This document shows, piece by piece, positions 3,430 through 50,503 of a DNA stretch of 50,503 nucleotides (its first letter is position 1; each line of letters begins with the position of its first letter). The translations under genes and the position numbers were made by a program. The stretch comes from a bacterium (GTDB taxonomy: Bacteria; Patescibacteriota; JACMRA01). Under the pieces are notes generated by a model. That model did no database searches. It saw only the letters and a program-made list of their open reading frames with translations, and was not told the DNA's origin. The stretch spans positions 1-50,503 of the forward strand of contig JAYUKQ010000071.1 in NCBI GenBank assembly GCA_043764315.1, given 5' to 3'.

Positions 3430-3684
3430 ATGTACTGTAGTTTTGGAATTTTTAATTATATCTTTGGTTTTATAAGTATATTACTCATTATAACCTTGAT
3501 TTTGATTGGTCTCAATTTGACTCATCGAGGTTTTCAAAAAAAACTACTAAAACCAGTTTTGATACCTTTTTTTGTTATTCTTGTATTTTGTTCTGTCAAC
3601 GTTGTATCTTCAAGCCAAAAGCTAATTGATAGGATTGAGCCGACATTTTGCCTCAAAGTAAGAGATATTTATATTAAAAAGTAA
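3430..3684 (+). CDS. hypothetical small membrane protein
   Basis: 84-aa ORF with two hydrophobic helices. There is no homology signal, so coding status is uncertain. Confidence 0.35.
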   Translation: MYCSFGIFNYIFGFISILLIITLILIGLNLTHRGFQKKLLKPVLIPFFVILVFCSVNVVSSSQKLIDRIEPTFCLKVRDIYIKK

Positions 3685-3686
3685 AC

Positions 3687-4328
3687 TTAAGGATGTAAGT
3701 TGAGCTGCATACAAAAATTCCACAAATCAGTTTGCTCTTTGAGAATTTGTTCTTGTGATAAATACTTATTCAGCCTTAAAAAACCATGAAAGCCCCACTC
3801 ACAACCTATAATTCTATCAATACCAAACAGTTCTTTTAGTTCCAAAATATCACTTACGGTATCAGTGAAGTAATAACAATCGGTAGGTTTGACACCCCAA
3901 GAATCACAAACCAAATTAACCTTACACTCTTTACTACTACTAGTTTCAAAACCATAAATAAATTCAAACATGGAAGACTTAGAACCCAAAATATCTTTAA
4001 TGTAATAACTAAAACCAGAAGAAACTATAGCCAATTTGTAATTTTTGGTGTTGTTAATGTCAGTAATTTGTTGAACGAAGCCCTCAAATAAACTCGGTTT
4101 AGCTTGTATCAATTTGTCACATAGGTGTTTCAAAAAATACCAATCTTTTTCCTTTTGTTCAGGACTTTTTTCCAAAGATAAAACAGGTTTACTAAAATAA
4201 TTCAAAAATTGTCTTTTGACTTCATCCAAGTCAGTGGTTCCATAAATTAATGATTCAGCGATAATTTTGATGCAAGGTTCAAGACTATCACAAATAACAC
4301 CATCAAAATCGAATATAAAGTAGTTCAT
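3687..4328 (-). CDS. HAD-superfamily hydrolase (phosphatase-like)
   Basis: HAD motif I FIFDFDGVICDS at the N-terminus, motif II (AIVSSG) and a C-terminal acidic motif region. Confidence 0.8.
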   Translation of the reverse strand: MNYFIFDFDGVICDSLEPCIKIIAESLIYGTTDLDEVKRQFLNYFSKPVLSLEKSPEQKEKDWYFLKHLCDKLIQAKPSLFEGFVQQITDINNTKNYKLAIVSSGFSYYIKDILGSKSSMFEFIYGFETSSSKECKVNLVCDSWGVKPTDCYYFTDTVSDILELKELFGIDRIIGCEWGFHGFLRLNKYLSQEQILKEQTDLWNFCMQLNLHP

Positions 4329-12417: not shown

Positions 12418-12999
12418 TTAACTATTTAAAATCTTGTCTACAATTCCATACTTAACAGATTCATCAGCTGTAAGCCAATTATCTCTATCCATGTCTTTGG
12501 CAATTTTTTTGATATCTTGACCAGTTCTTTCAGCCATAAATTTGTGAATTTTGTCTTTGGTGTGAAGGATGTGTTTGGCACGTATTTCAATATCACTAGC
12601 CATTCCACTTGCACCACCACTTGGTTGATGAATCATAACTTCTGCATTGGGTAGAATATACCTTTTACCTTTAGTGCCAGCTGCCAGAGCCATAGAACCA
12701 CAGCTAGCTGCCATTCCAATACAGATTGTAGACACGTCGCATTTGATCAAATTCATTGTATCGACAATAGACCACATAGAGTGAACCACACCTCCAGGAG
12801 AATTAATATACATTGTGATATCTTTGGTGGAATCTTCAGATTGCAAGTACAGAAGTTGAGCTACAATGGAAGCTGCCATATCATCATTAAAATCATCTGT
12901 TAACATAATTATTCTTTCATCTAATAGTCTAGAAAATAAATCCATTGATCTTTCTCCTTCAAAGGATCTTTTAATTACCATTGGTACTAAATTGGGCAT
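12418..12999 (-). CDS. clpP: ATP-dependent Clp protease proteolytic subunit
   Basis: The alignment by eye begins at [26 protein letters not shown]. Catalytic Ser context GMAASCGS and His context MIHQP are present. ATG 12999 is preferred over TTG 13095, and a TTGACA box lies 35 nt upstream of 12999. Confidence 0.93.
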
Positions 13000-13158
13000 A
13001 ATTAGAGGTTTGGATAAGGTAAGTTTTTTGTCAATATTTTGAGGGAGTAATACTTTTATTCTATTGTCTTGTGTTTGTGTGTAAAATTCGACCAAAAAAA
13101 TAAAATCGAACTTAGGATAATTAATCTTAATTTTTCGATTTGTTATTGTTAGTAATTG

Positions 13159-13244
13159 TGGCGGAAGCGGTAGGATTCGAACCCACGGACCGTTAAGTCG
13201 TTTGTTTTCAAGACAAATGCACTAGACCACTATGCGACGCTTCC
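13159..13244 (-). tRNA. tRNA-Ser (anticodon TGA)
   Basis: Acceptor GGAAGCG/CGCTTCC, anticodon loop CTTGAAA (UGA), long variable arm (class II), T-loop GGTTCGAATCC and encoded CCA. Confidence 0.9.
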
Positions 13245-13339
13245 AACTGTTACATGCAATTATATGCAAACAATTCTAATTGTTATAAAGAACAACTCTC
13301 TTGTCAAGTAAAAGCAAATTACAAACTGACCAAAAATGT

Positions 13340-14149
13340 CTATTTTAATCTGATACTATCAGCAGCAAGGTAATTCACAGAGTAACGTACATCAAGTGAT
13401 TTGGCAGTTCTGTTTTTGGATTTGGGGTAACGAATTTTGACTTCTCTGTTTTCATTAGGTAGAAAACCACTAATTTTGTAGTCTTGAGCGCCGATTATAC
13501 TATCTTGACCGTCTCGTATTAACATCACCAAATCAACATTTTTAATAAAATATCTAGTGGTGTTTTTGATTGTTGTCTTTAGGTTCAAATTATCTTTATC
13601 AGCATTTTCTATATTCTGTTCTCTAACTTCCAATTCTACGGGTTTGAGCAATTCATTAGCGGCGGAATTGTACTCAACTGGATTGGTATCTTCCAATTTT
13701 TGAATTGACATAGAAACAGCATTAGCGTCTCTTGTATAGACTGAAATATATTTGGCTTCACCTGGCAAAAGATAAGTCGATTTGACTTCGTCACTAATAG
13801 CTTCTCCCTGCTGATTGATAAGTTGTAACTTGTAAACAAAAGGATCGTAACCAATTATGCGGTTTTGACGATTGTCCAAAAAAGAATAAACCAATCTTCT
13901 ACCATCAGCCAAATCAACGAACTCGGAACTTTGTAAGTTAACTTGTTGTTCAGAAAACTGTTTTGAGTTAAGTATATTTTTTGAGTCAAAGCGGTTACTC
14001 CAGCCAAGGTTGTAAAACCACCATTTGGAAATTTGATTACCAAGTAAATACACAGGAAAAGCCAAAACAACCGAAACACCTAGAACTATCAAAACCCATT
14101 TTCTAACTCCACTTTGCAAATCTAGTGCAATATCTTCTACTCGTGACAT
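13340..14149 (-). CDS. hypothetical membrane-anchored protein
   Basis: 269-aa ORF with one N-terminal TM helix (WVLIVLGVSVVLAFPVYLLG). No recognisable domain. Confidence 0.6.
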   Translation of the reverse strand: MSRVEDIALDLQSGVRKWVLIVLGVSVVLAFPVYLLGNQISKWWFYNLGWSNRFDSKNILNSKQFSEQQVNLQSSEFVDLADGRRLVYSFLDNRQNRIIGYDPFVYKLQLINQQGEAISDEVKSTYLLPGEAKYISVYTRDANAVSMSIQKLEDTNPVEYNSAANELLKPVELEVREQNIENADKDNLNLKTTIKNTTRYFIKNVDLVMLIRDGQDSIIGAQDYKISGFLPNENREVKIRYPKSKNRTAKSLDVRYSVNYLAADSIRLK

Positions 14150-14170
14150 ATTGTTGGTGTATAATTAATT

Positions 14171-15310
14171 TTATTTTTTTACAAAGCTTGAACCAGCTTC
14201 TGTTACAGTTATGCTGTGAGGCATGGATTCTATGAACCCAGCTGAAGTAATTTGGACATATTTAGCTTTGGCTTGAAACTCACTGATAGTCTTACCTCCA
14301 ATGTAATAACAACTTGATTTTAGAGCGCCGCTAATTTGGTGCAAAAAATTTACTACATCACCTTTGTAACCAACTAATGCTTCCACACCTTCCGACACTA
14401 ATTTGGCAGATTCGATACCCGATTGACCGTAGCGAGCAGCCGAGCCTTCGCTCATAGCTTTAGCACTTCCCATACCTCGATAAACTTTGTACTGTTTGTT
14501 ATCTACTTCTTTGATATCTCCAGGTGATTGTTCGTATCCAGCTAGAAGTGAACCAAGCATAACAGCATCAGCTCCAAATGCAATAGCTTTTGCCATATCT
14601 CCAAGTTGCTTAATTCCACCATCAGCAATTAGAGTTATTTTTTTGCCAGATTGAATAATACCTTCTTTAACCAAAGCAATTGCCGTTAATTGTGGAACTC
14701 CCATTCCAGTAACTATGCGAGTTGTACAAATACTTCCAGGACCCATTCCAACCCGAAGAACGTCAGCTCCAACTTCTATAAGTGCCAAAGCAGCTTCTGT
14801 AGTTGTAATATTACCAGCCATAATTGAAACGTTTGGTGTCCACGCTTTGATTGATTTGATTGCGTCAAGAACAAACTGAACATGACCATGTGCCGTGTCA
14901 ACCACCAACAGATCAACACCTGCATTAACCAAACCCCTAACCCTTTCTTCAAAATCAGTTCCTACACCAACTGCTCCAGCTACAAGTAACCTACCTTGTG
15001 AGTCAGTAGCGGATCTATCATTAGTAATAGCTAGTTTGGTTTGTTTGACCATTTCTATTTGTTGACTAACTGACATAGATCTATGTATAACACCTAAACC
15101 GCCATTTTGGGCTAAAGTAATAGCCATTTGAGCAGTGGTAACTGAATCCATTGGGCTTGATAGAACTGGTAGTTTTAGTTTTAGGGTTGGAGTTAGTTCT
15201 ACAGACAGATCAACTTCTTCCCTCCAAAAATTAGAAAACCCAGGTAAAAGTAAAATATCATCAAAAGTAAGACCTAGTGTACCGCAGTTTTTTTGTTCCA
15301 ATAAAGACAT
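14171..15310 (-). CDS. guaB: IMP dehydrogenase lacking the CBS (Bateman) subdomain
   Basis: [12 protein letters not shown], the [11 protein letters not shown] catalytic Cys loop, [10 protein letters not shown] and [11 protein letters not shown] motifs are present. At 379 aa, a short linker replaces the CBS pair. Confidence 0.9.
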
Positions 15311-15432
15311 AGTGTTTCAAAAGTCGCAGACAAAAAATGGTATGTCAAGTGTACATAAACCAAATATAAACTAAAACTAAAAGTGTTTTGGATTTACAAC
15401 GGAGCCTATCTATGTTATACTAAGTCAATACT

Positions 15433-16884
15433 ATGATACCCAAAAAACAAAAGATAAACTGGGGGAAAAACTACTTTAGATTCGAAAGCTTACTCCTGAT
15501 TGCTAACATTTTTTGTATTGTGTTTTTTTGTTGGCAAATGTTTAGTCCCATTTGGTTTGGTGGTAATTGGAATCTATTAACCTTATTTTTGAGTTTATTT
15601 TGGGCAATAGGTGGGCAATTCATGATTGGAGTCGAAACCAGAGGAATGCTTGATGATGCCATGGCTAGTAAAGCTGTGAGTTTTTTTTATAGACAACCGA
15701 TTAACAAATATACTTTTTTGAAGCTAACGGTGCCAAAAGAATCTTCCTATAGTCTGGATAATCTAAAAGAATTTTTTTATTACATACATTCAGCTCAACA
15801 GTTTAGTGATTTTAGTAGTGAAAAAAGATTAAACTACGGAATTGGTAGTTATGAAGCTTGCTTTGACATTGTAATAACTCAATACGATGTAGAAGTCTAT
15901 ATGGCATTTTCTACACTCAATATTAACTATCACCAAAAAAGTTTTGAGTATTATCTAAAAGATATTAAATATGAATTAAGTGACAATCCTTACCAATCAC
16001 TACCAAAAAACTGGTACGACAAAGATGGTGCAGGCGGATACGAATGTTTGGCTGGTATGGCTCTTGGTTACACTATGAGTAATATGTATCATTCAGCCCA
16101 AATCGATTTGGAACAGGATTCTAACTTCCCAATTGACAACATGATTGAACAAATTCAAAAACAACTACAAAGTCAAACAGTTTACTTACAATATGTTTTT
16201 AACTTCGAAAATAGTCGATTACACGACTCAATCAGACCATCGATCAAAAAATTAAGACAAAGTATATATGACAGATTCTCTCTTAAGTTGATCAAACCAA
16301 ATAACAACAAAGAAGTTCTTGAAATACTTTTGCCAGAAATAGAGAAAAAACGCCTCGGTAGTATGGAAAAACGCATCAAAGAAAGTAGTGAACTTATATC
16401 TTCAACCATCAAAGTAATGGCACTATGCACAGCTAAAGAATATTCTGAAACTGAAAAAATCCTTGAAAAAGCACTAAAAGGCAATCATCGCAAAACTAGA
16501 AAAGAAGAAAATGAAATAGAGATTATATATTACACAGCTACTAACCAGAGATATTTTAATCTTTCACAAAAGCCCTCACCTTTTAGTATTCCTTACATGA
16601 ATAGTCTATACTATTTTCCACCAAGATGGCTAGAACCATTTGTTTCTAATCTGTACGATAATATTTTTTATTATAACGAAAATCGCTGGAGGCGGCAAGT
16701 AATATATAGAAGAATTCTAAGTAGGTCAGGTCAGTCTCCATGGCAAAACAAAAATACTATATTAGATCTTAACACTCTGGTAAGCGTTTTTCAAATTCCC
16801 AAAACTGGCACTCGAAATGAGTTAAAAAAAGGAAGTCTACACGACTTAAATTTACTAAGAGATATAGAAGCAGTTCAAGAATAA
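15433..16884 (+). CDS. membrane protein, paralog A, resembling the N-terminal non-ATPase module of CPR T4SS coupling-protein/DUF87-type ATPases
   Basis: Two N-terminal TM helices, then FLKLTVPKESS, EACFDIVITQYDVEVYMAF, YLQYVF and a terminal ILDLNTLVSVFQIP. There is no Walker A. It is clearly paralogous to the next ORF. Confidence 0.6.
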   Translation: MIPKKQKINWGKNYFRFESLLLIANIFCIVFFCWQMFSPIWFGGNWNLLTLFLSLFWAIGGQFMIGVETRGMLDDAMASKAVSFFYRQPINKYTFLKLTVPKESSYSLDNLKEFFYYIHSAQQFSDFSSEKRLNYGIGSYEACFDIVITQYDVEVYMAFSTLNINYHQKSFEYYLKDIKYELSDNPYQSLPKNWYDKDGAGGYECLAGMALGYTMSNMYHSAQIDLEQDSNFPIDNMIEQIQKQLQSQTVYLQYVFNFENSRLHDSIRPSIKKLRQSIYDRFSLKLIKPNNNKEVLEILLPEIEKKRLGSMEKRIKESSELISSTIKVMALCTAKEYSETEKILEKALKGNHRKTRKEENEIEIIYYTATNQRYFNLSQKPSPFSIPYMNSLYYFPPRWLEPFVSNLYDNIFYYNENRWRRQVIYRRILSRSGQSPWQNKNTILDLNTLVSVFQIPKTGTRNELKKGSLHDLNLLRDIEAVQE

Positions 16885-16894
16885 TCACTCCAAA

Positions 16895-18259
16895 ATGTCA
16901 AAATTCAACCCTTATCGATACTACCTAAACAAGGAAAAAATATCTTGGAAAAAAGCTTTTTGGACGATAGTTGTAGTTTTGAGTGTTGCTTTTTTGTTTT
17001 GGATTTTGGGTGTAACTTGGTTATATCAATTCCAGTTTGGTAATATGTGGCAAAAGCTTGTATGGAATTTAGTTCTAATTTGGGTAGTTGGTGGAGTATA
17101 TTTTGTGCTAGTCAAATACACCGAACAGTGGGACGAATCACTTATAGATATACAAAATGGCAAATACTTCACTTCCAAATTTCACACTCGTGAGACTTAT
17201 CAGTTAATTATCCCTGAAGATCAATCCAAACCAATTAATTACAGCGAGTTTTTTATATCGCTTAGTCACTCACTAAAAACTGTGAACGCAACCAAAGAAA
17301 ATGATTTTAATATAGGCAAAAAACCATTATCACTGTTCTTTGACTTCATCGCTGAAAATCGTAAACTCAAAATTTATGTAACAGCTTCAGGCTCCAAAAT
17401 CCGCGGTATAACAGATGCTATGACTAGACATTGTCCAGATATAAGATTAGAAAGAGTTCCTGATCCTCTTAAGTATCTAAAAGATGATTTTAAAGCTGGA
17501 AAGTTAGACTTGGATAATATAGCTGGTTTTGCACTTACTCTGAATCAATCTAATATGTTTCCATTTGGGCTAATTGAAGATGCTGCACATGAACAAGAGT
17601 CAATTAAGACACTTCTACAAGGTATTATTGATTCCAGTGCCAACAAAATGATCACACTGCAATATGGTTTTTTGTTTAGTGATGGTCATCCTCAAGACAA
17701 ATACCAAAAAGAATTTGATGAATATATGTCCAGTTTAACGGAGCAATACAACGCAAAATTTGAAAATAAAAGTAAAAGTGTAAAAAGATTATTCCCCGAA
17801 TCCAAAATCAATGACTACAATGGAGTGTACAAACGACTGAATAGTATTTGGTTCATGGCAGCTATGAGAACTATATGTTATGACACTTCAGGCGCAGACA
17901 ATCAACAAAGAATGGAGAGCATGTTTACATCATTTTTGAGAAATCCCAAATCACCTCTGGATATTAATTATCTAACCTCAACTAGACAAACTTACTATAA
18001 GTTCACTAAAGACAGTAGGCACCCAGAAGCTGACGAAATATACGACAATCTTGTTTTTCCACCTGAAGGTGTTTTGGAAACTTGGATAGCTCCAATGTAT
18101 GAAAAATATTATTATCCACAAGAAAGTAGACTGCGAAAAGGAACAATGCTTAGATCAATCTACCTTCGTAATCCAATGCAACCTTGGCATCCCAAATTCA
18201 CTTGGATGGACACTAATGTTATTAAGTGCTATTTTTGTCTCCAAGATAAATTCAAATAA
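16895..18259 (+). CDS. membrane protein, paralog B of the preceding gene
   Basis: Same architecture (2 TM helices plus a soluble domain). C-terminal conserved blocks are shared with paralog A: FPP..LE...Y..YY..E.R.R......R....PW. No nucleotide-binding motif. Confidence 0.6.
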   Translation: MSKFNPYRYYLNKEKISWKKAFWTIVVVLSVAFLFWILGVTWLYQFQFGNMWQKLVWNLVLIWVVGGVYFVLVKYTEQWDESLIDIQNGKYFTSKFHTRETYQLIIPEDQSKPINYSEFFISLSHSLKTVNATKENDFNIGKKPLSLFFDFIAENRKLKIYVTASGSKIRGITDAMTRHCPDIRLERVPDPLKYLKDDFKAGKLDLDNIAGFALTLNQSNMFPFGLIEDAAHEQESIKTLLQGIIDSSANKMITLQYGFLFSDGHPQDKYQKEFDEYMSSLTEQYNAKFENKSKSVKRLFPESKINDYNGVYKRLNSIWFMAAMRTICYDTSGADNQQRMESMFTSFLRNPKSPLDINYLTSTRQTYYKFTKDSRHPEADEIYDNLVFPPEGVLETWIAPMYEKYYYPQESRLRKGTMLRSIYLRNPMQPWHPKFTWMDTNVIKCYFCLQDKFK

Positions 18260-44186: not shown

Positions 44187-45041
44187 CTATCTCAATCCTT
44201 GCAGTTTAATCAAATTCCAAAAGAGACACAAAACCGTCAGTGGACCGACTCCTCCAGGACTTGGACAGAGATAAACAGATTCATCCAAATTCTCAATATC
44301 CACATCACCAACTAAAACTCCATTACTATTACTAGTTGCAACGTCAATTACAATACAATTTGTTTTGAGCCAATTGCTTGTAACTAACTTTGGAACACCT
44401 GCACCGCTAAGTACAATGTCAGCCAACTTAACTAATTCAGCTGGATTTGGAGTTTCTTTGTTGATAGTCAAAATAGTTGCTCCTCGATCAAGTAAATAAC
44501 GAATCAAAGGTTTACCAACCAACACTCCCTGCCCGATTACAGCCACTTTGAAACCACTCAAATCTAGCTGATAATTCAAAATTAACTCAACAGAACTCAA
44601 ATCATCTTTGAGCAAATTCTTATCTTTCATCATCAGCTTTAGAACTAGATCCACAGCTTGTACTGTCGGTGGCAAAAATCCTTCCTGCCAAAGCTTTTCA
44701 AGCTGATCACCAAGCATATCTACATCACACTTATACGGTACACTTCTCATCATTGACCAAAAATTATCGGGAATTGGCAGTTGAAAAATCAAACCTTGAT
44801 TGGAGTCAAAAATAGTATTCAAACTAAGCTTAGGCAAAATAAACTCTTCTTCAAAGTGCAAATGATTAACTTCCAAACCAAGATTCAAACCAATTTTTTT
44901 CTTCAAGTTAACGTAACGAGTGGAAGATAGATTATTACCAATTTGGACAATGTTTAGCACTGGTAACTTTGATAATTTGGGAATCTCACTTTGTAAAAAA
45001 GCTAGCAATTCAGTTTTTAATTTTTGATTCTGGAATAACAT
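44187..45041 (-). CDS. folD: bifunctional methylenetetrahydrofolate dehydrogenase/cyclohydrolase
   Basis: VQIGNNLSSTRYVNLKKK, the VIGQGVLVGKP Rossmann motif and PSPGGVGPLTV motif. Confidence 0.9.
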   Translation of the reverse strand: MLFQNQKLKTELLAFLQSEIPKLSKLPVLNIVQIGNNLSSTRYVNLKKKIGLNLGLEVNHLHFEEEFILPKLSLNTIFDSNQGLIFQLPIPDNFWSMMRSVPYKCDVDMLGDQLEKLWQEGFLPPTVQAVDLVLKLMMKDKNLLKDDLSSVELILNYQLDLSGFKVAVIGQGVLVGKPLIRYLLDRGATILTINKETPNPAELVKLADIVLSGAGVPKLVTSNWLKTNCIVIDVATSNSNGVLVGDVDIENLDESVYLCPSPGGVGPLTVLCLFWNLIKLQGLR

Positions 45042-45051
45042 ACACGATTCA

Positions 45052-48045
45052 TTATATTTTTGATTTTAGCTTTTTATCCACCATTTTGTCCATTACTCGT
45101 AGTAGATATTCTTGAAAATCGATATTCTCGGAATAATTATTCAGTAGCTGCATGTGCGATTCCACACCCGAATACATTTTTTCATCCAAAAGCTTTTTGA
45201 AAGTTAATTTGCGGTTGTGTTTGTCAGCATCTTGCAAAGATTCTTTTTTGGTAGGGTCGCTCGCTATTTCATTGGTGATATTGAGTAAAATCTGCTTGAC
45301 TTTGTCTTCGTCGCTAAAATCAGTCCCAAATCTAGTGTTAAAATCACTCACAATATTTGCTAGTATATCTTTTTCACTTTCAGATTTTTGCCCTGTAGAA
45401 GAGCTTGGAACTGGATTGAGTTCGTCTGATTCTGATAGGCTAATACGAGCGTTAGAGGTGATCTTTTGGTTGCGATACGAGTCAAAATCCACTGACTCTA
45501 GAACATCTTGACTAAGAGTGTCTTCCTTGGTTCCTTCTCCAATAACCTTCTTACTCAACACTTTCAAGAATTGGTGTAATTCCTCAAAAATTGGCTCGTC
45601 AAAAGTGATAATTTGGGATATAAAAGCATAAAACTTGGTGAATAACTTGGCTTTGTTTTTGAATTCGTCGATTTGATCGAGTGGGAGTTTTTTGAGATTT
45701 TCAACAACTGTGTCCATCAAAGCGTGCAATTTTTGTGTTTCTATTCCACTTAATAAGTCTGTTGCAAACTTATGTACCACTAACTCTGTATAGACTCCAA
45801 AATTATCCAGTTGATCCTTGAGATCGTGTAGCCTATTGGGATCGCTTCCAGCTGATAAAACAGTGGTTTGATAGTATGGTTCAAAAGCAGTTTTGATATC
45901 ATCCTCGGTGTTGTAGAAATCTAATACAAAGGTACTTTCTTTGTCCTTGTGAACACGATTGAGCCTTGACAAGGTCTGAACTGCACCCACACCTCCTAGC
46001 TTTTTGTCTACATACATAGTCTGCAAAAGTGGCTGGTCAAAACCTGTCTGATACTTGTTAGCACAGACCAAAAACTGATAATTACCACTCTCAAATTGAT
46101 CAGGAATTTTGGAGGAAGAGAATTGGTTGAGCTTGGATTCGTTCCAGTCCGTTCCGTCTAAACTAACATCCCCACTAAAAGCCGTGATCACATGTAACGG
46201 ATAGTCATTTTCTCGAATGATTTTATTAAAGGCAAAATGGTATTTGACCGCGTTAAGGCGACTGCCACAGACAACCATAGCTTTGGCCCGTCCACCCACC
46301 AGACCCTTGAGATAGACCTGGGAGTAAAAATGACTAAGCATCGTTTGGGCTTTGGTCTCGATAGTGTGACTATTACTCTCCACGAATTTTTTCATCTGAC
46401 TGTTGGCTTTTTTTTTGTCGTATTGGGTGTCATTATTATCCACCACACTTAAGGCATAGTAACTATTGTAAGTAGTGTAATTACTAAGTACATCCAAGAT
46501 AAAACCTTCCTCAATAGCTTGTTTCATCGTATAACTGTCAAAAGCCACAAACTTCCCGTCATCTATTCTTGTGCCAAAAAGCTCCAAGGTTTTGTTCTTG
46601 GGGGTAGCCGTAAAAGCAAAGTAACTAGCATTGGCAAGCATCCTACGACTCTGCAAGGTTTCCAAAACTAATTCTTCGGTGGTGATTTCATCTTCAAACA
46701 ACTCCCCATCCAAAAGCTCGGATTTGATTGTCCTATTCATCTTGGAGATAGTTTCACCGCTGGTGCTAGAATGAGCTTCGTCAATAATTATTGCAAACTT
46801 TTTGGAACCAAGCTCAGTTTTAATACCTTGTTTTTCAAGTTCTTCTATGATATCAATTACTACTGGGAATTTTTGGATGGTGGTGATAATGATTCGTTTA
46901 CCATCTTCCAGAGCTTGTTTGAGCTGCTTGCTACCGTCGGTGATAGTTTCTACCAGTCCATTAGTATGTTCAAATCCCATAATATTATCCCTCAATTGTC
47001 GATCCAAAACCTGTCGATCTGTAATGATCAGAACACTATCAAAAATGTTAGTAGCTCCATCATCTAGGAACAATTTGGCGAGTTGATGTGCCAACCAAGC
47101 GATACTGTTGCTCTTGCCAGAACCTGCACTGTGTTGAATCAAAAACTTTTGTCCTGTGCCTTTGGTTTTGGATTCTAGTAGCAACTTATTGACGACTTGA
47201 AGTTGATGATAACGTGGGAATATCAACTTACGAACAACTTTATCTTTTTTGGTCTCAACTAACAATTGTACAAAATCACTTATCAACTTACTCAAACTTT
47301 GCTTGGTCAAAATTTCTTTCCATAGATAATCTGTCCTGATACCATCGACTGTCGGTGGATTACCCGCTCCACCATTATGACCTTTGTTAAACGGCAAAAA
47401 CCAAGTCTTGTCATCCTCTAGCCGTGTAGTCATATACACCTGCTCGGTATCTACTGCAAAATGTACCAAACACCTCTCAAACTTAAACAGCTCTTCACGG
47501 CTGCTGCGATCGTGCTTGTATTGATTAATTGCATCTTTGACATTTTGCCCTGTGAGTAGATTCTTGAGTTCTAGCGTTGCGATAGGAAGTCCGTTAACCA
47601 AGATTACCATATCCAGTGAGTTCTTGTGCTTGTCACTATAATACACCTGCCGAGCTACTACAAAACTATTACAATTCCACAATTTTTCTAACTCTGGATT
47701 AAAATTACTATTGGGTACAAAATACATTATGCGAAGACTACAATTACGATCTTTGACACCTTTGCGAAGGACATGCAAAACTCCTTTTTCTCGAATTTCT
47801 TTTTGGAGTCGTTCCAAGAATCGCTTTTGATAATCGCTACCATAATTAGCTTTTAACTTCTCCATTTCTAGTTGTTGGCTGGATTCCAAGAACTCAAACA
47901 GTGCCACGGTATCAATAACCTCTTTGCGGTCGTAATGCCCAGAATGCTCTCCAGAGTAGTACTTTTGGTCAAAGCCATTGTTATCAGTTAGGTAATTGGT
48001 GATTAGCTCCTCAAAGCCGATTTCGCGAGTGTTAGTTGTTGGCAT
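45052..48045 (-). CDS. hsdR: Type I restriction enzyme R subunit (HsdR)
   Basis: N-terminal PD-(D/E)xK region (DMVILVNGLPIATLELKN), SF2 motor motifs QHSAGSGKSN (Walker A), IIIDEAHSS (DEAH) and QTLSRLNR, over 997 aa. Confidence 0.95.
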   Translation of the reverse strand: MPTTNTREIGFEELITNYLTDNNGFDQKYYSGEHSGHYDRKEVIDTVALFEFLESSQQLEMEKLKANYGSDYQKRFLERLQKEIREKGVLHVLRKGVKDRNCSLRIMYFVPNSNFNPELEKLWNCNSFVVARQVYYSDKHKNSLDMVILVNGLPIATLELKNLLTGQNVKDAINQYKHDRSSREELFKFERCLVHFAVDTEQVYMTTRLEDDKTWFLPFNKGHNGGAGNPPTVDGIRTDYLWKEILTKQSLSKLISDFVQLLVETKKDKVVRKLIFPRYHQLQVVNKLLLESKTKGTGQKFLIQHSAGSGKSNSIAWLAHQLAKLFLDDGATNIFDSVLIITDRQVLDRQLRDNIMGFEHTNGLVETITDGSKQLKQALEDGKRIIITTIQKFPVVIDIIEELEKQGIKTELGSKKFAIIIDEAHSSTSGETISKMNRTIKSELLDGELFEDEITTEELVLETLQSRRMLANASYFAFTATPKNKTLELFGTRIDDGKFVAFDSYTMKQAIEEGFILDVLSNYTTYNSYYALSVVDNNDTQYDKKKANSQMKKFVESNSHTIETKAQTMLSHFYSQVYLKGLVGGRAKAMVVCGSRLNAVKYHFAFNKIIRENDYPLHVITAFSGDVSLDGTDWNESKLNQFSSSKIPDQFESGNYQFLVCANKYQTGFDQPLLQTMYVDKKLGGVGAVQTLSRLNRVHKDKESTFVLDFYNTEDDIKTAFEPYYQTTVLSAGSDPNRLHDLKDQLDNFGVYTELVVHKFATDLLSGIETQKLHALMDTVVENLKKLPLDQIDEFKNKAKLFTKFYAFISQIITFDEPIFEELHQFLKVLSKKVIGEGTKEDTLSQDVLESVDFDSYRNQKITSNARISLSESDELNPVPSSSTGQKSESEKDILANIVSDFNTRFGTDFSDEDKVKQILLNITNEIASDPTKKESLQDADKHNRKLTFKKLLDEKMYSGVESHMQLLNNYSENIDFQEYLLRVMDKMVDKKLKSKI

Positions 48046-48064
48046 AAATTGTAGATATATAAAA

Positions 48065-49171
48065 TTAATTTGTTGTTATGGGTTTAATTTGATTATTCCC
48101 CTCGTGAGGGGTGGCAGCAAAGCTGACGGGGTGTTCTTTTTTGGATTTCAAATGATTATACAAATTCCCCATAACAATATCCATTGCTTTTTTAATCTCA
48201 ATATCACTATAATGCAAAACCTCCAAACCGTGACCAATCAAATATTCTTCTCGCTTTACATCATATTCACCTTTGAAGTTGTGACTCTCACCATCGATCT
48301 CAACCACAATTCCAAGCTCAGGACAGAAGAAATCTACAATATAATTACCAATTATTTTTTGCCTCTCAAAATCCAGTCCTAATAGTTGTTTGTTTTTAAT
48401 TTTATTCCAAAACAGTACTTCTGATAATACTCCTGCCTTTCTATGCTCTTTAGCATTTTCTTTGAGTTTTGGATTATATGGAAGGTTTTGATGTTTGGAA
48501 TATTTAGCTTTGGTTGGAATGCCAAACACCCCGTCAGTCTGCGACTGCCACCCCTCAAGAGGGGAATTCTCTTCAATATCTTTCTCGGCAAAGGGATTTT
48601 CGTCGTTGATTAATTCAATTCCCATATCATCTCGAAAATCAAAGGTAACTCGTTGTTTGAGATCCTCACCAACCTCCAAAGTCCTTTCAAAGTTGTTTTG
48701 GGCTAGGAGACTATTTTGGTATAAGCCTCGCTTGATTTGGTCTGTGAGATCGTATTTTGACCAGCCGTTACTAATTGATTTTTTGATGTAGAATTCAGCC
48801 TCAAGCGGGTCTTTGCACTTGTCCAAAATTATTTTATTATTACTCCAGCTAATTTGGGCTACCAGTGGATGCCCGATTGTATTGTTGCAATAAGTCTCAT
48901 AAAACTGTCGCATATATTTGATTTCCCTAAATGAAAAACCGCCAACTCCAGCAAACTCTACTTGCAAATCTTTGGATAGATTCTCAACAACTTTGGAACC
49001 CCAATTGGCATTTGTGGCTTTCTCACTGATAATTTTACCAAGATCCCAAGCCATCATCACTTTCTCGCTACTAAAGGCCTTGAGCACATTGTATTGAGCT
49101 TGTTTGACCCTAAGGACTAAGGCATCGAGTGTTGATTTGTATTCTTGTGGTATTAGATTAGACATATTCAT
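48065..49171 (-). CDS. fusion protein: DUF1016 (YhcG) N-terminal domain + DUF559 (Vsr-like) endonuclease domain, joined and terminated by repeat-encoded peptides
   Basis: The first roughly 200 residues carry WGSKVVENLSKDL, GFSFREIKYMRQFY, AQISWSNN, FYIKKSISNGWS and so match DUF1016_N. Later residues SEVLFWNKIKNKQLLGLDFERQKIIGNYIVDFFCPELGIVVEIDGESH...REEYL..HGLEVLHY match DUF559. The usual DUF1016 C-terminal nuclease core is absent. Confidence 0.8.
   Translation of the reverse strand: MNMSNLIPQEYKSTLDALVLRVKQAQYNVLKAFSSEKVMMAWDLGKIISEKATNANWGSKVVENLSKDLQVEFAGVGGFSFREIKYMRQFYETYCNNTIGHPLVAQISWSNNKIILDKCKDPLEAEFYIKKSISNGWSKYDLTDQIKRGLYQNSLLAQNNFERTLEVGEDLKQRVTFDFRDDMGIELINDENPFAEKDIEENSPLEGWQSQTDGVFGIPTKAKYSKHQNLPYNPKLKENAKEHRKAGVLSEVLFWNKIKNKQLLGLDFERQKIIGNYIVDFFCPELGIVVEIDGESHNFKGEYDVKREEYLIGHGLEVLHYSDIEIKKAMDIVMGNLYNHLKSKKEHPVSFAATPHEGNNQIKPITTN
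48095..48133 (-). repeat. GC-rich palindromic repeat, copy A (inverted relative to B-D)
   Basis: attcccctcgtgaggggtggcagcaaagctgacggggtg. Its reverse complement matches copy B except for the 5- versus 7-nt internal spacer and one loop base. It encodes HPVSFAATPHEGN at the C-terminus of the fusion protein. Confidence 0.9.
48527..48567 (+). repeat. GC-rich palindromic repeat, copy B
   Basis: caccccgtcagtctgcgactgccacccctcaagaggggaat. It encodes SPLEGWQSQTDGV at the DUF1016_N/DUF559 junction. Confidence 0.9.
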
Positions 49172-49692
49172 TTAATATCGTTAGTGCGTAAGTTTTCTAG
49201 AAAGCTGCCTTCGTAGTACAGATACTGAAGACAGTTGACGTAGGTACTTACTTTAAAGCCTTTTTGTGTCAATCCAACGATAAGCGAAGTTGCTTGGTTG
49301 ACAGATCCAACGTTCGTAAAAATCATTTTATCATTGTAGAAAACATCGCAACAACAACTTTTAGTTTTACTTTTTTTGGACTTTCCAATGCACAAATCTT
49401 CCTTAATTTTTATCAAATACTCTGAATAGTTTAATTCGTATCCACCTCTTGAGAATTGTAAAACTGAGTTAGCTCTTATGGTAAAGTAGTCTCCACCACT
49501 TTCTTCTAGCTTAGGTTTTATTTTAGAGTTAAAATCAATAGGTTTGTCTATTTGATGTACACTCAAAAAACTCTCTGGATCAATTTGATTTACAGAAATT
49601 ATCTGAAAGGGAGCAATTTGGTATAGTTCAAGCTCAGGATAAGTATAGAATTTGTCTCCTATTTTTATAATTTGTATCGGTTGTGTAGACAT
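49168..49692 (-). CDS. hypothetical protein (ORFan within the Type I R-M locus)
   Basis: 174-aa ORF. Its TGA stop overlaps the ATG of the downstream fusion gene (ATGA), and it starts 14 nt after the hsdS stop. No motif recognised, apart from a Cys cluster SCCCD. Confidence 0.6.
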   Translation of the reverse strand: MSTQPIQIIKIGDKFYTYPELELYQIAPFQIISVNQIDPESFLSVHQIDKPIDFNSKIKPKLEESGGDYFTIRANSVLQFSRGGYELNYSEYLIKIKEDLCIGKSKKSKTKSCCCDVFYNDKMIFTNVGSVNQATSLIVGLTQKGFKVSTYVNCLQYLYYEGSFLENLRTNDIK

Positions 49693-49706
49693 ATTTTGTT
49701 AGTGAT

Positions 49707-50503
49707 TTAGATTAGTATCTTCCCAGTAACGGCATTGTAAATCAGAGACTTTTTGTACTCCAAGATCAACTCAATCTCACGCTGAATCTTGCCGATTGTG
49801 TCATCAATAATAGCATTTTGGGTATCTAGGTAAGCTACGATTTGTTGTTGAGTTGATAAACTAGGTATTAAAATTTTAAATTCCCCTATAACTTGCAAAT
49901 TCAAACCATCTCGTAATCCATCTCCAGCAATTCCTCTAAGTTCTCTGTATGCAGAATCAAGTAAAAAATATAGGTATTTATTATTTAATAAGTTATTTGG
50001 TTTTATTACACCTAATGATTGATTGCAAGTTGTTTTTATGTTCACAAGTGCAACAGTGCCTTTGGTTTTTCCCTGCCCAGCCAAAGCAATTACCAACGAA
50101 CCAGATTCTATCCACTTTGCAGAAGAATTATTTAAACCTAACTCGGTTATATGATCTGTTGCGTAATTAATTATACCTTGATTTACTTCACCAGAGGCTA
50201 GCCAAGGAATTGTTCCATTTGTCCAGTATTCAGGCTTATCCTTTGATGGTGTACCCCCAGAATAAATATTTGAAAATCTTTTGAGATATGTGCAAACCCA
50301 ATCGCTGGGAATATCGCCGAGCCACTCTACTCCAGAGGGTTTTAATACCCCGTCAGCTCCGCTGCCACCCCTTTGGAAATACCCCGTCAGTCTACGACTG
50401 CCACCCCTTTGGAAAAGGGGAATGGTAGTTTTGCCAGTGACGGCGTTGTAGATCAGAGACTTTTTTTGTTCCTGTAGAAGGCTGATAATCTTGGTTTTGT
50501 CCG
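49707..50503 (-). CDS. hsdS: Type I restriction enzyme S subunit (HsdS), 5'-partial: central conserved region, repeat insertion, TRD2, C-terminal conserved region
   Basis: The frame is open from the window end. It reads DKTKIISLLQEQKKSLIYNAVTGKTTI, then repeat-encoded PLFQRGGSRRLTGYFQRGGSGADGVL, then LKPSGVEWLGDIPSDW (TRD start), and ends in LILEYKKSLIYNAVTGKILI. The ORF-track start at 50096 is an internal TTG. Confidence 0.85.
   Translation of the reverse strand, partial: DKTKIISLLQEQKKSLIYNAVTGKTTIPLFQRGGSRRLTGYFQRGGSGADGVLKPSGVEWLGDIPSDWVCTYLKRFSNIYSGGTPSKDKPEYWTNGTIPWLASGEVNQGIINYATDHITELGLNNSSAKWIESGSLVIALAGQGKTKGTVALVNIKTTCNQSLGVIKPNNLLNNKYLYFLLDSAYRELRGIAGDGLRDGLNLQVIGEFKILIPSLSTQQQIVAYLDTQNAIIDDTIGKIQREIELILEYKKSLIYNAVTGKILI
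50346..50379 (+). repeat. GC-rich palindromic repeat, copy C (lacks the closing AGGGG arm)
   Basis: taccccgtcagctccgctgccacccctttggaaa, directly abutting copy D. Confidence 0.85.
50380..50423 (+). repeat. GC-rich palindromic repeat, copy D
   Basis: taccccgtcagtctacgactgccacccctttggaaaaggggaat. It has the same ACCCCGTCAG-N7-CTGCCACCCCT-loop-AGGGGAAT architecture as copy B. Confidence 0.9.

Follow-up and report, generated by a model that had tools for sequence, protein, structure and literature searches.

A DUF559 hairpin cassette within a yhcG gene embedded in a type I restriction-modification operon of a Patescibacteriota bacterium

Type I restriction-modification (R-M) systems frequently carry embedded genes, which are often defence genes, and PrrC is almost confined to these systems (bioRxiv 10.1101/2024.01.29.577857). 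DUF1016 genes are enriched beside R-M genes, and one of them has been shown between type I core genes (PMC9881135). In type I operons with embedded genes, such as the prr locus with PrrC and the operons with DUF1016, RhuM or Fic genes (PMC9881135, bioRxiv 10.1101/2024.01.29.577857, PMC2610378), hsdM, hsdS and hsdR lie on one strand with short gaps, and the foreign genes are placed between hsdS and hsdR. In this study, an operon with the same layout was analysed in contig JAYUKQ010000071.1 (GenBank assembly GCA_043764315.1; Patescibacteriota, JACMRA01), and the whole stretch of 50,503 nucleotides is referred to as the window. The operon differs from the described ones in that one of its two cargo genes is without relatives and the other is cut by a cassette. 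It differs further in that an extra DUF559 gene lies between hsdM and hsdS, and in that no ABC-ATPase or anticodon nuclease of the PrrC or Rlo type is present.

The cut cargo gene is related to the YhcG/DUF1016 family (PF17761 plus PF06250; PADLOC PDC-S02; clade 98 of PMC3424549). The N-terminal 201 residues of its product shared 76-81% identity with genuine YhcG proteins, and a location in an R-M operon is often found for YhcG; unlike YhcG, the product lacks the defining PD-(D/E)XK C-terminal domain except for its first ~24 residues. The frame continues into a full-length DUF559 domain of the DUF559/Vsr-like endonuclease fold (PF04480; PDB 3HRL), which is under purifying selection. In contrast to that fold as otherwise known, the domain lies here on a 474-bp unit with inverted double-hairpin ends, which has no start codon of its own and is read in the frame of the host gene. 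Clade 58 of PMC3424549 groups DUF559 with Vsr (1CW0) and the homing endonuclease I-Bth0305I (3R3P), and no published description of a DUF559 hairpin cassette was found. The explanation that we consider probable is that of an intact-looking, acquired type I R-M operon, in whose cargo slot an open reading frame (ORF) without relatives, termed the ORFan, accompanies a yhcG gene cut by the DUF559 cassette, the resulting chimera being a by-product.

The broken yhcG gene and its cassette

Pfam placed DUF1016_N (PF17761) at residues 21-152 of the chimera (E=5e-38), and the PADLOC profiles for YhcG (PDC-S02) covered only residues 1-201/202, corresponding to positions 1-200 of ~350. Two full-length YhcG relatives from the same family (G013 and G003; 347 and 352 amino acids) were 81% and 76% identical to the chimera over residues 2-203 and diverged from it completely after 'KDIE'. 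As YhcG_C spans residues 177-321 in these relatives, the break falls ~24 residues past the start of the nuclease domain, whose catalytic core has been lost. The C-terminal domain that marks YhcG members (YhcG_C, PF06250) gave no Pfam match in the chimera, and no remnant of it was found elsewhere in the assembled genome. Judged from its sequence, the chimera is a remnant of the YhcG family and no functional member of it.

The chimera was also searched against a collection of 5.8 billion proteins (E<=1e-10), which returned 398 proteins, and Pfam domains were listed for the best 120 of these. Among the 120, the combination PF17761+PF04480 occurred in the product of the window only, and every YhcG-side match carried PF17761+PF06250. 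An earlier reading of this DNA, made from the sequence alone and referred to here as the sequence-only reading, had described a DUF1016N-DUF559 fusion. Both domains are indeed present, but the combination is not a recurrent architecture and appears to be a one-off product of a DUF559 cassette cutting yhcG.

The DUF559 domain (PF04480) was found at residues 235-341 (E=2e-25) and covered profile positions 2-108 of 109. It matched PDB 3HRL over 90 aligned residues (E=4e-11), including 'VDF...VE.DG..H', and the catalytic block was retained in the chimera as VDFFC...VEIDGESH. A GC-rich repeat starts exactly at the break of yhcG, consisting of CCCCT-loop-AGGGG, TGGC-stem-loop-stem-GAC and GGGGT, and it is found again, inverted, at the 3' end of the DUF559 domain. 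The nearest DUF559 relative (P0019, 74% identical) forms the C-terminal portion of a Bro-N protein, whose gene lies between the R gene and the M-S genes of another, unrelated R-M locus (L037). In the DNA alignment with this Bro-N::DUF559 gene, similarity began at AATTCCCCTC... and ended at ...GAGGGGAAT, and the flanks were unrelated; the similarity is confined between the hairpin ends, and the cassette is therefore a discrete 474-bp unit. The Bro-N relative reaches a stop 7 codons (STKVHKV) past its cassette. In the window, the host frame does not continue beyond the insert either, as it stops 9 codons past the cassette, with no further part of yhcG present.

Comparison of the cassette interior with the Bro-N copy gave a nonsynonymous distance (dN) of 0.165, a synonymous distance (dS) of 1.88 and a dN/dS of 0.09, which indicated that the DUF559 protein is under purifying selection. 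The two ends were 98% and 95% identical to those of the Bro-N copy, with 100% and 85% identity at third codon positions, which indicated that the ends are constrained as nucleic acid. No features of an intron or intein were found in the cassette, and neither a cut site nor a target duplication nor an empty-site allele was found for it. To our knowledge, no activity is known for this DUF559 clade.

The cassette was not confined to yhcG. DUF559 with hairpin-encoded linkers was found in frame inside leucyl-, threonyl- and cysteinyl-tRNA synthetase (LeuRS, ThrRS and CysRS), another class I aminoacyl-tRNA synthetase, phosphoglycerate mutase (iPGM; two in one gene), a type ISP enzyme and hsdS of related genomes. 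The cassettes in essential genes are located in L015, L017, L019, L020, L021 and L022 (genomes G001, G002, G003, G012 and G017), and the host protein resumes past the insert in LeuRS, ThrRS and iPGM of relatives. Since the cassette sits in frame in unrelated genes, a DUF559 fusion alone is no sign of a functional partnership. Moreover, the same hairpin-end peptides flank DUF559 in dozens of database matches. Among the DUF559-side matches listed with a second Pfam domain (n=30) there were 20 R-M subunits, 6 RhuM or Bro-N proteins and 2 housekeeping enzymes; by this count of host genes, which is biased by the length filter of the search, the nearest cassette clade appears to be found mostly in R-M genes.

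In the RhuM::DUF559 proteins (P0030, P0033, P0044 and P0101), RhuM profile positions 1-54 of 252 were kept (1-70 in one), and the Bro-N::DUF559 proteins (P0019 and P0036) have a common breakpoint, with Bro-N ending at 'QTRKQE'. These proteins are diverged, and in all of them the stub is directly followed by the hairpin cassette and a stop. As far as these sequences tell, truncation of R-M cargo genes by the cassette is a recurring outcome. Either such RhuM and Bro-N chimeras would be long-lived, or the cassette would have preferred insertion points in R-M cargo genes.

The type I operon and its cargo slot

The features of the locus are collected in Table 1. The spacing is 14 nt between hsdS and the ORFan, a 4-nt overlap (ATGA) between the ORFan and the chimeric ORF, 19 nt between this ORF and hsdR, and 10 nt between hsdR and folD. 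The window is one entire contig of a source genome of 1.15 Mb, which is 73% complete and has ~34% GC, and contig C46 of this genome carries the upstream part of the operon. The junction of the two contigs is spanned unbroken by a metagenome scaffold of 72 kb (L001; 99.95% identity to the window), which gives the full order: P-type ATPase, hsdM (588 amino acids), a free-standing DUF559 gene (184 amino acids), hsdS (495 amino acids), the ORFan, DUF1016_N::DUF559, hsdR and folD. The arrangement was identical in four independent assemblies, three of them metagenome assemblies, with a run of 100 N in L002 as the sole discrepancy, and an assembly chimera is therefore excluded. A consensus scan for promoter- and terminator-like sites gave nothing above the level of shuffled sequence, and the layout is compatible with a single transcription unit, of which it is no proof.

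Table 1. Positions of genes, cassette parts and hairpin repeats in the operon (window positions unless a scaffold is named).
Feature	Position	Strand	Description
hsdS 3' part	49707-50501	minus	264 codons; second target recognition domain (TRD2) and distal conserved region; open at window end
ORFan	49168-49692	minus	174 amino acids
DUF1016_N+DUF559 ORF	48065-49171	minus	368 amino acids
yhcG stub	48569-49171	minus	residues 1-201: DUF1016_N and first ~24 residues of the YhcG_C PD-(D/E)XK domain
DUF559 hairpin cassette	48095-48568	minus	474 bp, residues 202-359; sharp homology limits against L037
Cassette 5' double-hairpin end	48525-48568	minus	
Cassette inverted 3' end	48095-48133	minus	
Post-cassette tail	48065-48094	minus	9 codons and stop (NQIKPITTN*), unrelated to YhcG
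hsdR	45052-48045	minus	997 amino acids
folD	44187-45041	minus	housekeeping gene; Pfam THF_DHG_CYH, THF_DHG_CYH_C E=1e-34
Two inverted hairpin cores	L001		behind the DUF559 gene between hsdM and hsdS
One hairpin core	L001		in frame near the HsdS N-terminus
Two tandem solo double-hairpin copies	50344-50420	minus	in frame in hsdS (PLFQRGGSRRLTGYFQRGGSGADGV), between central conserved helix and TRD2
Two hairpin cores			cassette ends of the chimera

The sequence-only reading had given the gene order on the minus strand with all gaps, and the ORF coordinates match it exactly. It had also placed hsdM beyond the window, where the gene was located on both C46 and L001, and its family assignments for hsdS, the two chimera domains, hsdR and folD agree with profile searches of Pfam, PADLOC and NCBIfam. 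HsdM (L001 6130-7896) matched Pfam N6_Mtase (E=4e-62) and HsdM_N (E=2e-19), and its NPPY motif is present as 'FILTNPPYG' in the C46 translation. The part of HsdS in the window matched Pfam Methylase_S (E=6e-23) and PADLOC Specificity_I (E=2e-55); the complete HsdS of 495 amino acids (L001 8499-9986) has two Methylase_S stretches, as expected of a protein with two target recognition domains. It aligned with an ortholog of 465 amino acids, and its surplus length consists of in-frame hairpin repeats. In HsdR, Pfam detected HSDR_N, SWI2_SNF2, ResIII and T1R_D3, and PADLOC detected REase_I (E=7e-42). The nuclease motif ELK was found at 159 and the helicase motifs DEAH, TATP and QTGFD at 422, 479 and 666. 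Its score against TIGR00348 (218 bits) was under the cut-off of 284, which places it in a diverged subfamily. The type I system looks intact in its motifs and domains, and the operon is probably functional.

Of 25 family genomes, only 2 carried an orthologue of hsdR (62-67% identity), and the 4 same-genus genomes carried none. In addition, the GC content at third codon positions (GC3) was ~0.40 in hsdM, the yhcG part and hsdR, and 0.26-0.31 in the flanking ATPase and folD genes. This patchy distribution, together with the GC3 contrast, points to horizontal acquisition of the R-M operon. An empty site of the R-M island was sought through folD synteny in the four same-genus genomes, and no synteny was kept there.

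In both orthologous operons (G015, L035; G018, L034), a Fic/DOC gene lies between hsdS and hsdR, where the ORFan and yhcG lie in the present operon. The hsdS-hsdR interval is a variable cargo slot, in accordance with its earlier description as an accessory-gene hotspot, and the view of YhcG/DUF1016 as a known R-M-embedded gene agrees with the literature (PMC9881135, PMC3424549, bioRxiv 10.1101/2024.01.29.577857) and with PADLOC PDC-S02. In the G015 operon, which is the only ortholog with an assembled hsdM end, hsdM directly abuts hsdS; the G018 contig ends inside hsdS, and the hsdM-hsdS junction was readable in G015 only. The sequence upstream of hsdR was compared with the orthologous operons for a deletion endpoint, and nothing alignable was found. 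The ATPase and HEPN-like matches expected for an ABC-ATPase with an anticodon nuclease of the PrrC or RloC type were absent from both cargo proteins in searches of Pfam, PADLOC and NCBIfam.

The ORFan and the rival readings of the chimera

A word-indexed search of the 5.8 billion proteins and an exhaustive phmmer search of 1.84 billion representative proteins both returned only the ORFan itself, and a six-frame search of 25 family genomes returned no homologue. Weak matches in L028 and L029 were checked and dismissed. Furthermore, no family was assigned in Pfam (E up to 10), PADLOC, NCBIfam or a PDB sequence search, and the one match in PHROGs (E=0.085) was not significant. A single-sequence AlphaFold (AF2) model had a predicted local distance difference test (pLDDT) value of 33 and was uninformative. 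The absence of homologues, of a family and of a confident fold, together with the lack of an obvious Shine-Dalgarno sequence upstream, is what would be expected if the ORFan were no gene at all, that is, an accidental open frame or a decayed spacer remnant from cargo turnover. We regard this as quite improbable. Its in-frame codon score of 0.27 bits/codon equals that of its real neighbours hsdS, the yhcG stub and hsdR, with the other two frames at or below 0, and only 0.03 open frames of at least 174 codons are expected per 50-kb window of composition-matched random sequence. Moreover, real genes typically show such a stop/start overlap with the gene that follows, and no gene competes with the ORFan on the opposite strand. 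The ORFan looks like a real gene, which is probably translated by coupling.

The closest YhcG genes were found in five other contexts, namely by an N6_N4 methylase, by an Mrr-like gene, between an EcoRI-type methylase and GmrSD (two loci), and between hsdM and hsdS of another type I operon, and no neighbour related to the ORFan was present in any of them. The last of these operons (L050 7001-13460) contains an intact, 79%-identical YhcG. Two small unannotated ORFs lie between its hsdS and hsdR, one of 92 amino acids and one of 174 amino acids predicted to be a membrane protein. The latter ORF was considered as a counterpart of the ORFan and rejected.

According to the sequence-only reading, the ORFan and the nuclease fusion might together make up a two-gene auxiliary defence module dedicated to the R-M system. 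The tight coupling of the two genes and their location in a recognised cargo slot favour this proposal, as do the listing of YhcG among the defence candidates of PADLOC and the frequency of defence genes among those embedded in type I R-M systems (bioRxiv 10.1101/2024.01.29.577857). The same reading had named beforehand, as evidence that would speak against the proposal, an ORFan without homologues; this is what every search gave, and the module hypothesis therefore fails. Conserved neighbourhood with DUF1016, which it had also raised, was not observed, since the YhcG relatives of 75-81% identity in the five other R-M or defence contexts all occur without the ORFan. The ORFan and the chimera thus showed none of the co-occurrence expected of a two-gene toxin-antitoxin or effector-regulator module. 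In addition, the ORF of the same length in L050 encodes an unrelated membrane protein, and the GC3 of the ORFan (0.30 against 0.40 for yhcG) argues for separate origins. A dedicated module is accordingly the reading to which we give the least credence.

A stronger rival is that of a functional nuclease-domain swap, in which the YhcG N-terminal domain, as a sensor or DNA-binding part, would be joined to a DUF559 effector to give a working R-M-embedded defence nuclease, with the ORFan as a possible regulator. The intact frame of 368 codons and the retained catalytic block would suit such a protein, as would the strong purifying selection on DUF559, but the copy used for measuring this selection resides in another host gene. 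The break does not fall on a domain boundary, as it lies inside YhcG_C and strands a fragment of ~24 residues. The architecture is unique among the best 120 of 398 matches, and the cassette family travels as an in-frame passenger in LeuRS, ThrRS, CysRS, iPGM and hsdS. We consider the swap unlikely, and we leave some room for functional chimeras because cassette-truncated R-M cargo genes recur.

Several observations weigh against a mere by-product, and the first three of them also favour the swap. The branch of the chimera's YhcG N-terminal domain had a dN of 0.063, which was not above that of the relatives (0.072 and 0.113); these are dN branch lengths, which alone were usable as dS was saturated. 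The N-terminal domain is therefore possibly still under selection, or the break is recent. The analogous proteins with a RhuM or Bro-N stub followed by a cassette recur with conserved breakpoints, and could be kept because they are functional. Furthermore, the ATGA overlap of the ORFan and the chimera is a pattern often seen in real partner genes. Finally, no empty-site allele that would show the order of events was found for this yhcG.

The reading of the chimera as a by-product of the cassette remains the probable one, and its steps can be outlined as follows. HsdM and HsdS would methylate a bipartite site, and HsdR would translocate and cut unmodified DNA. The slot between hsdS and hsdR is swappable and is occupied in this lineage by the ORFan and yhcG, a passenger nuclease gene. 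The 474-bp mobile cassette would have landed in yhcG or recombined with it, and the remainder of the YhcG PD-(D/E)XK domain would have been lost, either by insertion and subsequent deletion or by recombination between hairpins. The frame of 368 amino acids would be a by-product in which a Pro/Gly linker encoded by the hairpin connects the YhcG N-terminal domain to DUF559. The YhcG part would have lost its nuclease activity, and the DUF559 part would be the selected one, probably as an active nuclease that serves the cassette and not the R-M system. The same repeat family appears to have struck the operon repeatedly, leaving five solo hairpins and the further, free-standing DUF559 gene that separates hsdM from hsdS.

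The arrangement is genuine, though for the most part ordinary. 'Guilt by embedding' is used to mine type I R-M operons for new anti-phage genes, and the present locus illustrates two traps of this approach. An apparent new nuclease architecture, DUF1016_N with DUF559, may be damage from a selfish cassette, and a tightly coupled neighbour can be an orphan without evolutionary partnership. The locus may also serve as a dated example from nature in which a DUF559 hairpin cassette has destroyed a defence gene that is not essential, as opposed to harmless in-frame residence. A speculative idea, which we hold to be quite improbable, is that DUF559 cassettes of this clade prefer R-M loci and act as swappable effectors. 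They would cut YhcG, RhuM and Bro-N cargo genes after the N-terminal domains to yield working chimeric defence nucleases, and the ORFan would be a lineage-specific regulator in this operon. If the bias toward R-M genes is true, R-M islands may be vehicles that spread the cassettes between genomes.

Hairpin repeats in the operon and elsewhere in the genome

Seven hairpin cores were found in the operon between hsdM and hsdR (on L001), and contig C99 carries the only two others of the assembled genome (7/9 in the operon). Five of those in the operon are solo hairpins, three of which lie in frame in hsdS. In the repeat copies from other loci, the variable stem was perfectly complementary in 24 of 25, with 10 distinct stems, and no family in Rfam matched the repeat. 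All DUF559 copies of the genome (3/3) lie in its two type I loci, two of them in the present operon and the third on contig C37, where it lies between hsdS and hsdR. Identity between the two copies of the present operon was only 53%, which excludes a recent duplication.

Short GC-rich palindromic repeats that spread in a genome and can be read in frame, as here in HsdS, recall the Rickettsia palindromic elements and the REP/RAYT-type repeats. The present repeats differ from these in that they end a unit encoding a PD-(D/E)XK-type nuclease, with no tyrosine (HUH) transposase, and in that they are concentrated in one operon and not dispersed.

At the junction of the central region and TRD2 of hsdS, the G015 ortholog has hairpin-like peptides and G019 a whole cassette, and at least 10 proteins with Methylase_S and DUF559 were present among the database matches listed. 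By comparison of these sequences, the junction is a recurrent insertion site. In the 3' end of hsdM, CTGACGGGGT was considered as a partial hairpin and rejected, as it is native hsdM coding sequence conserved in the ortholog.

Two tandem hairpin pairs of 88 bp, 92% identical and inverted with respect to each other, bracket the start codon and the first target recognition domain of hsdS (L001 8378-8463, C46 ~4125-4210; and L001 9269-9354, window 50338-50423). Inversion of the 5' half of hsdS via these pairs could occur, and the orientation was the same in all four assemblies. The annotation 'DUF559 domain-containing protein' is among those enriched in predicted targets of programmed inversion (PMC9881135).

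The N-terminus of the DUF559 protein encoded between hsdM and hsdS (L001 7910-8040; C46 ~3655-3790) reads '...EPDGVFKPSGLEW...', which consists of a hairpin tail and a 'KPSG(V/L)EW' leader. The same leader precedes TRD2 in hsdS (window ~50320-50345). This sharing suggests that a fragment of hsdS was once relocated when hairpin copies recombined.

With respect to folD, the final 50 nt of hsdR contain two promoter-like hexamer pairs, TGGACA-18-TAAAAT and TGGATA-18-TATAAT (L001 14601-14642), which are matches to the consensus only. The expression of folD may result from read-through of the R-M operon, or may start from these pairs in the hsdR end (region 45042-45100 of the window, L001 14601-14651).

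The two hairpin cores on C99 (2391-2414 and 2558-2581) are identical and intergenic, have a different, compensated stem (GGCGACGAAGTCGAC), and lie 167 bp apart with no DUF559 nearby. The second type I locus of the genome (C37 ~12800-17440; L036 3826-8442) contains its DUF559 gene, of 203 amino acids, before an hsdR of 1102 amino acids. Hairpins of another family, which read 'RPLNKGY(I/S)(G/D)SDKK' in translation, border that DUF559 gene and also occur in frame in the hsdS of that locus.

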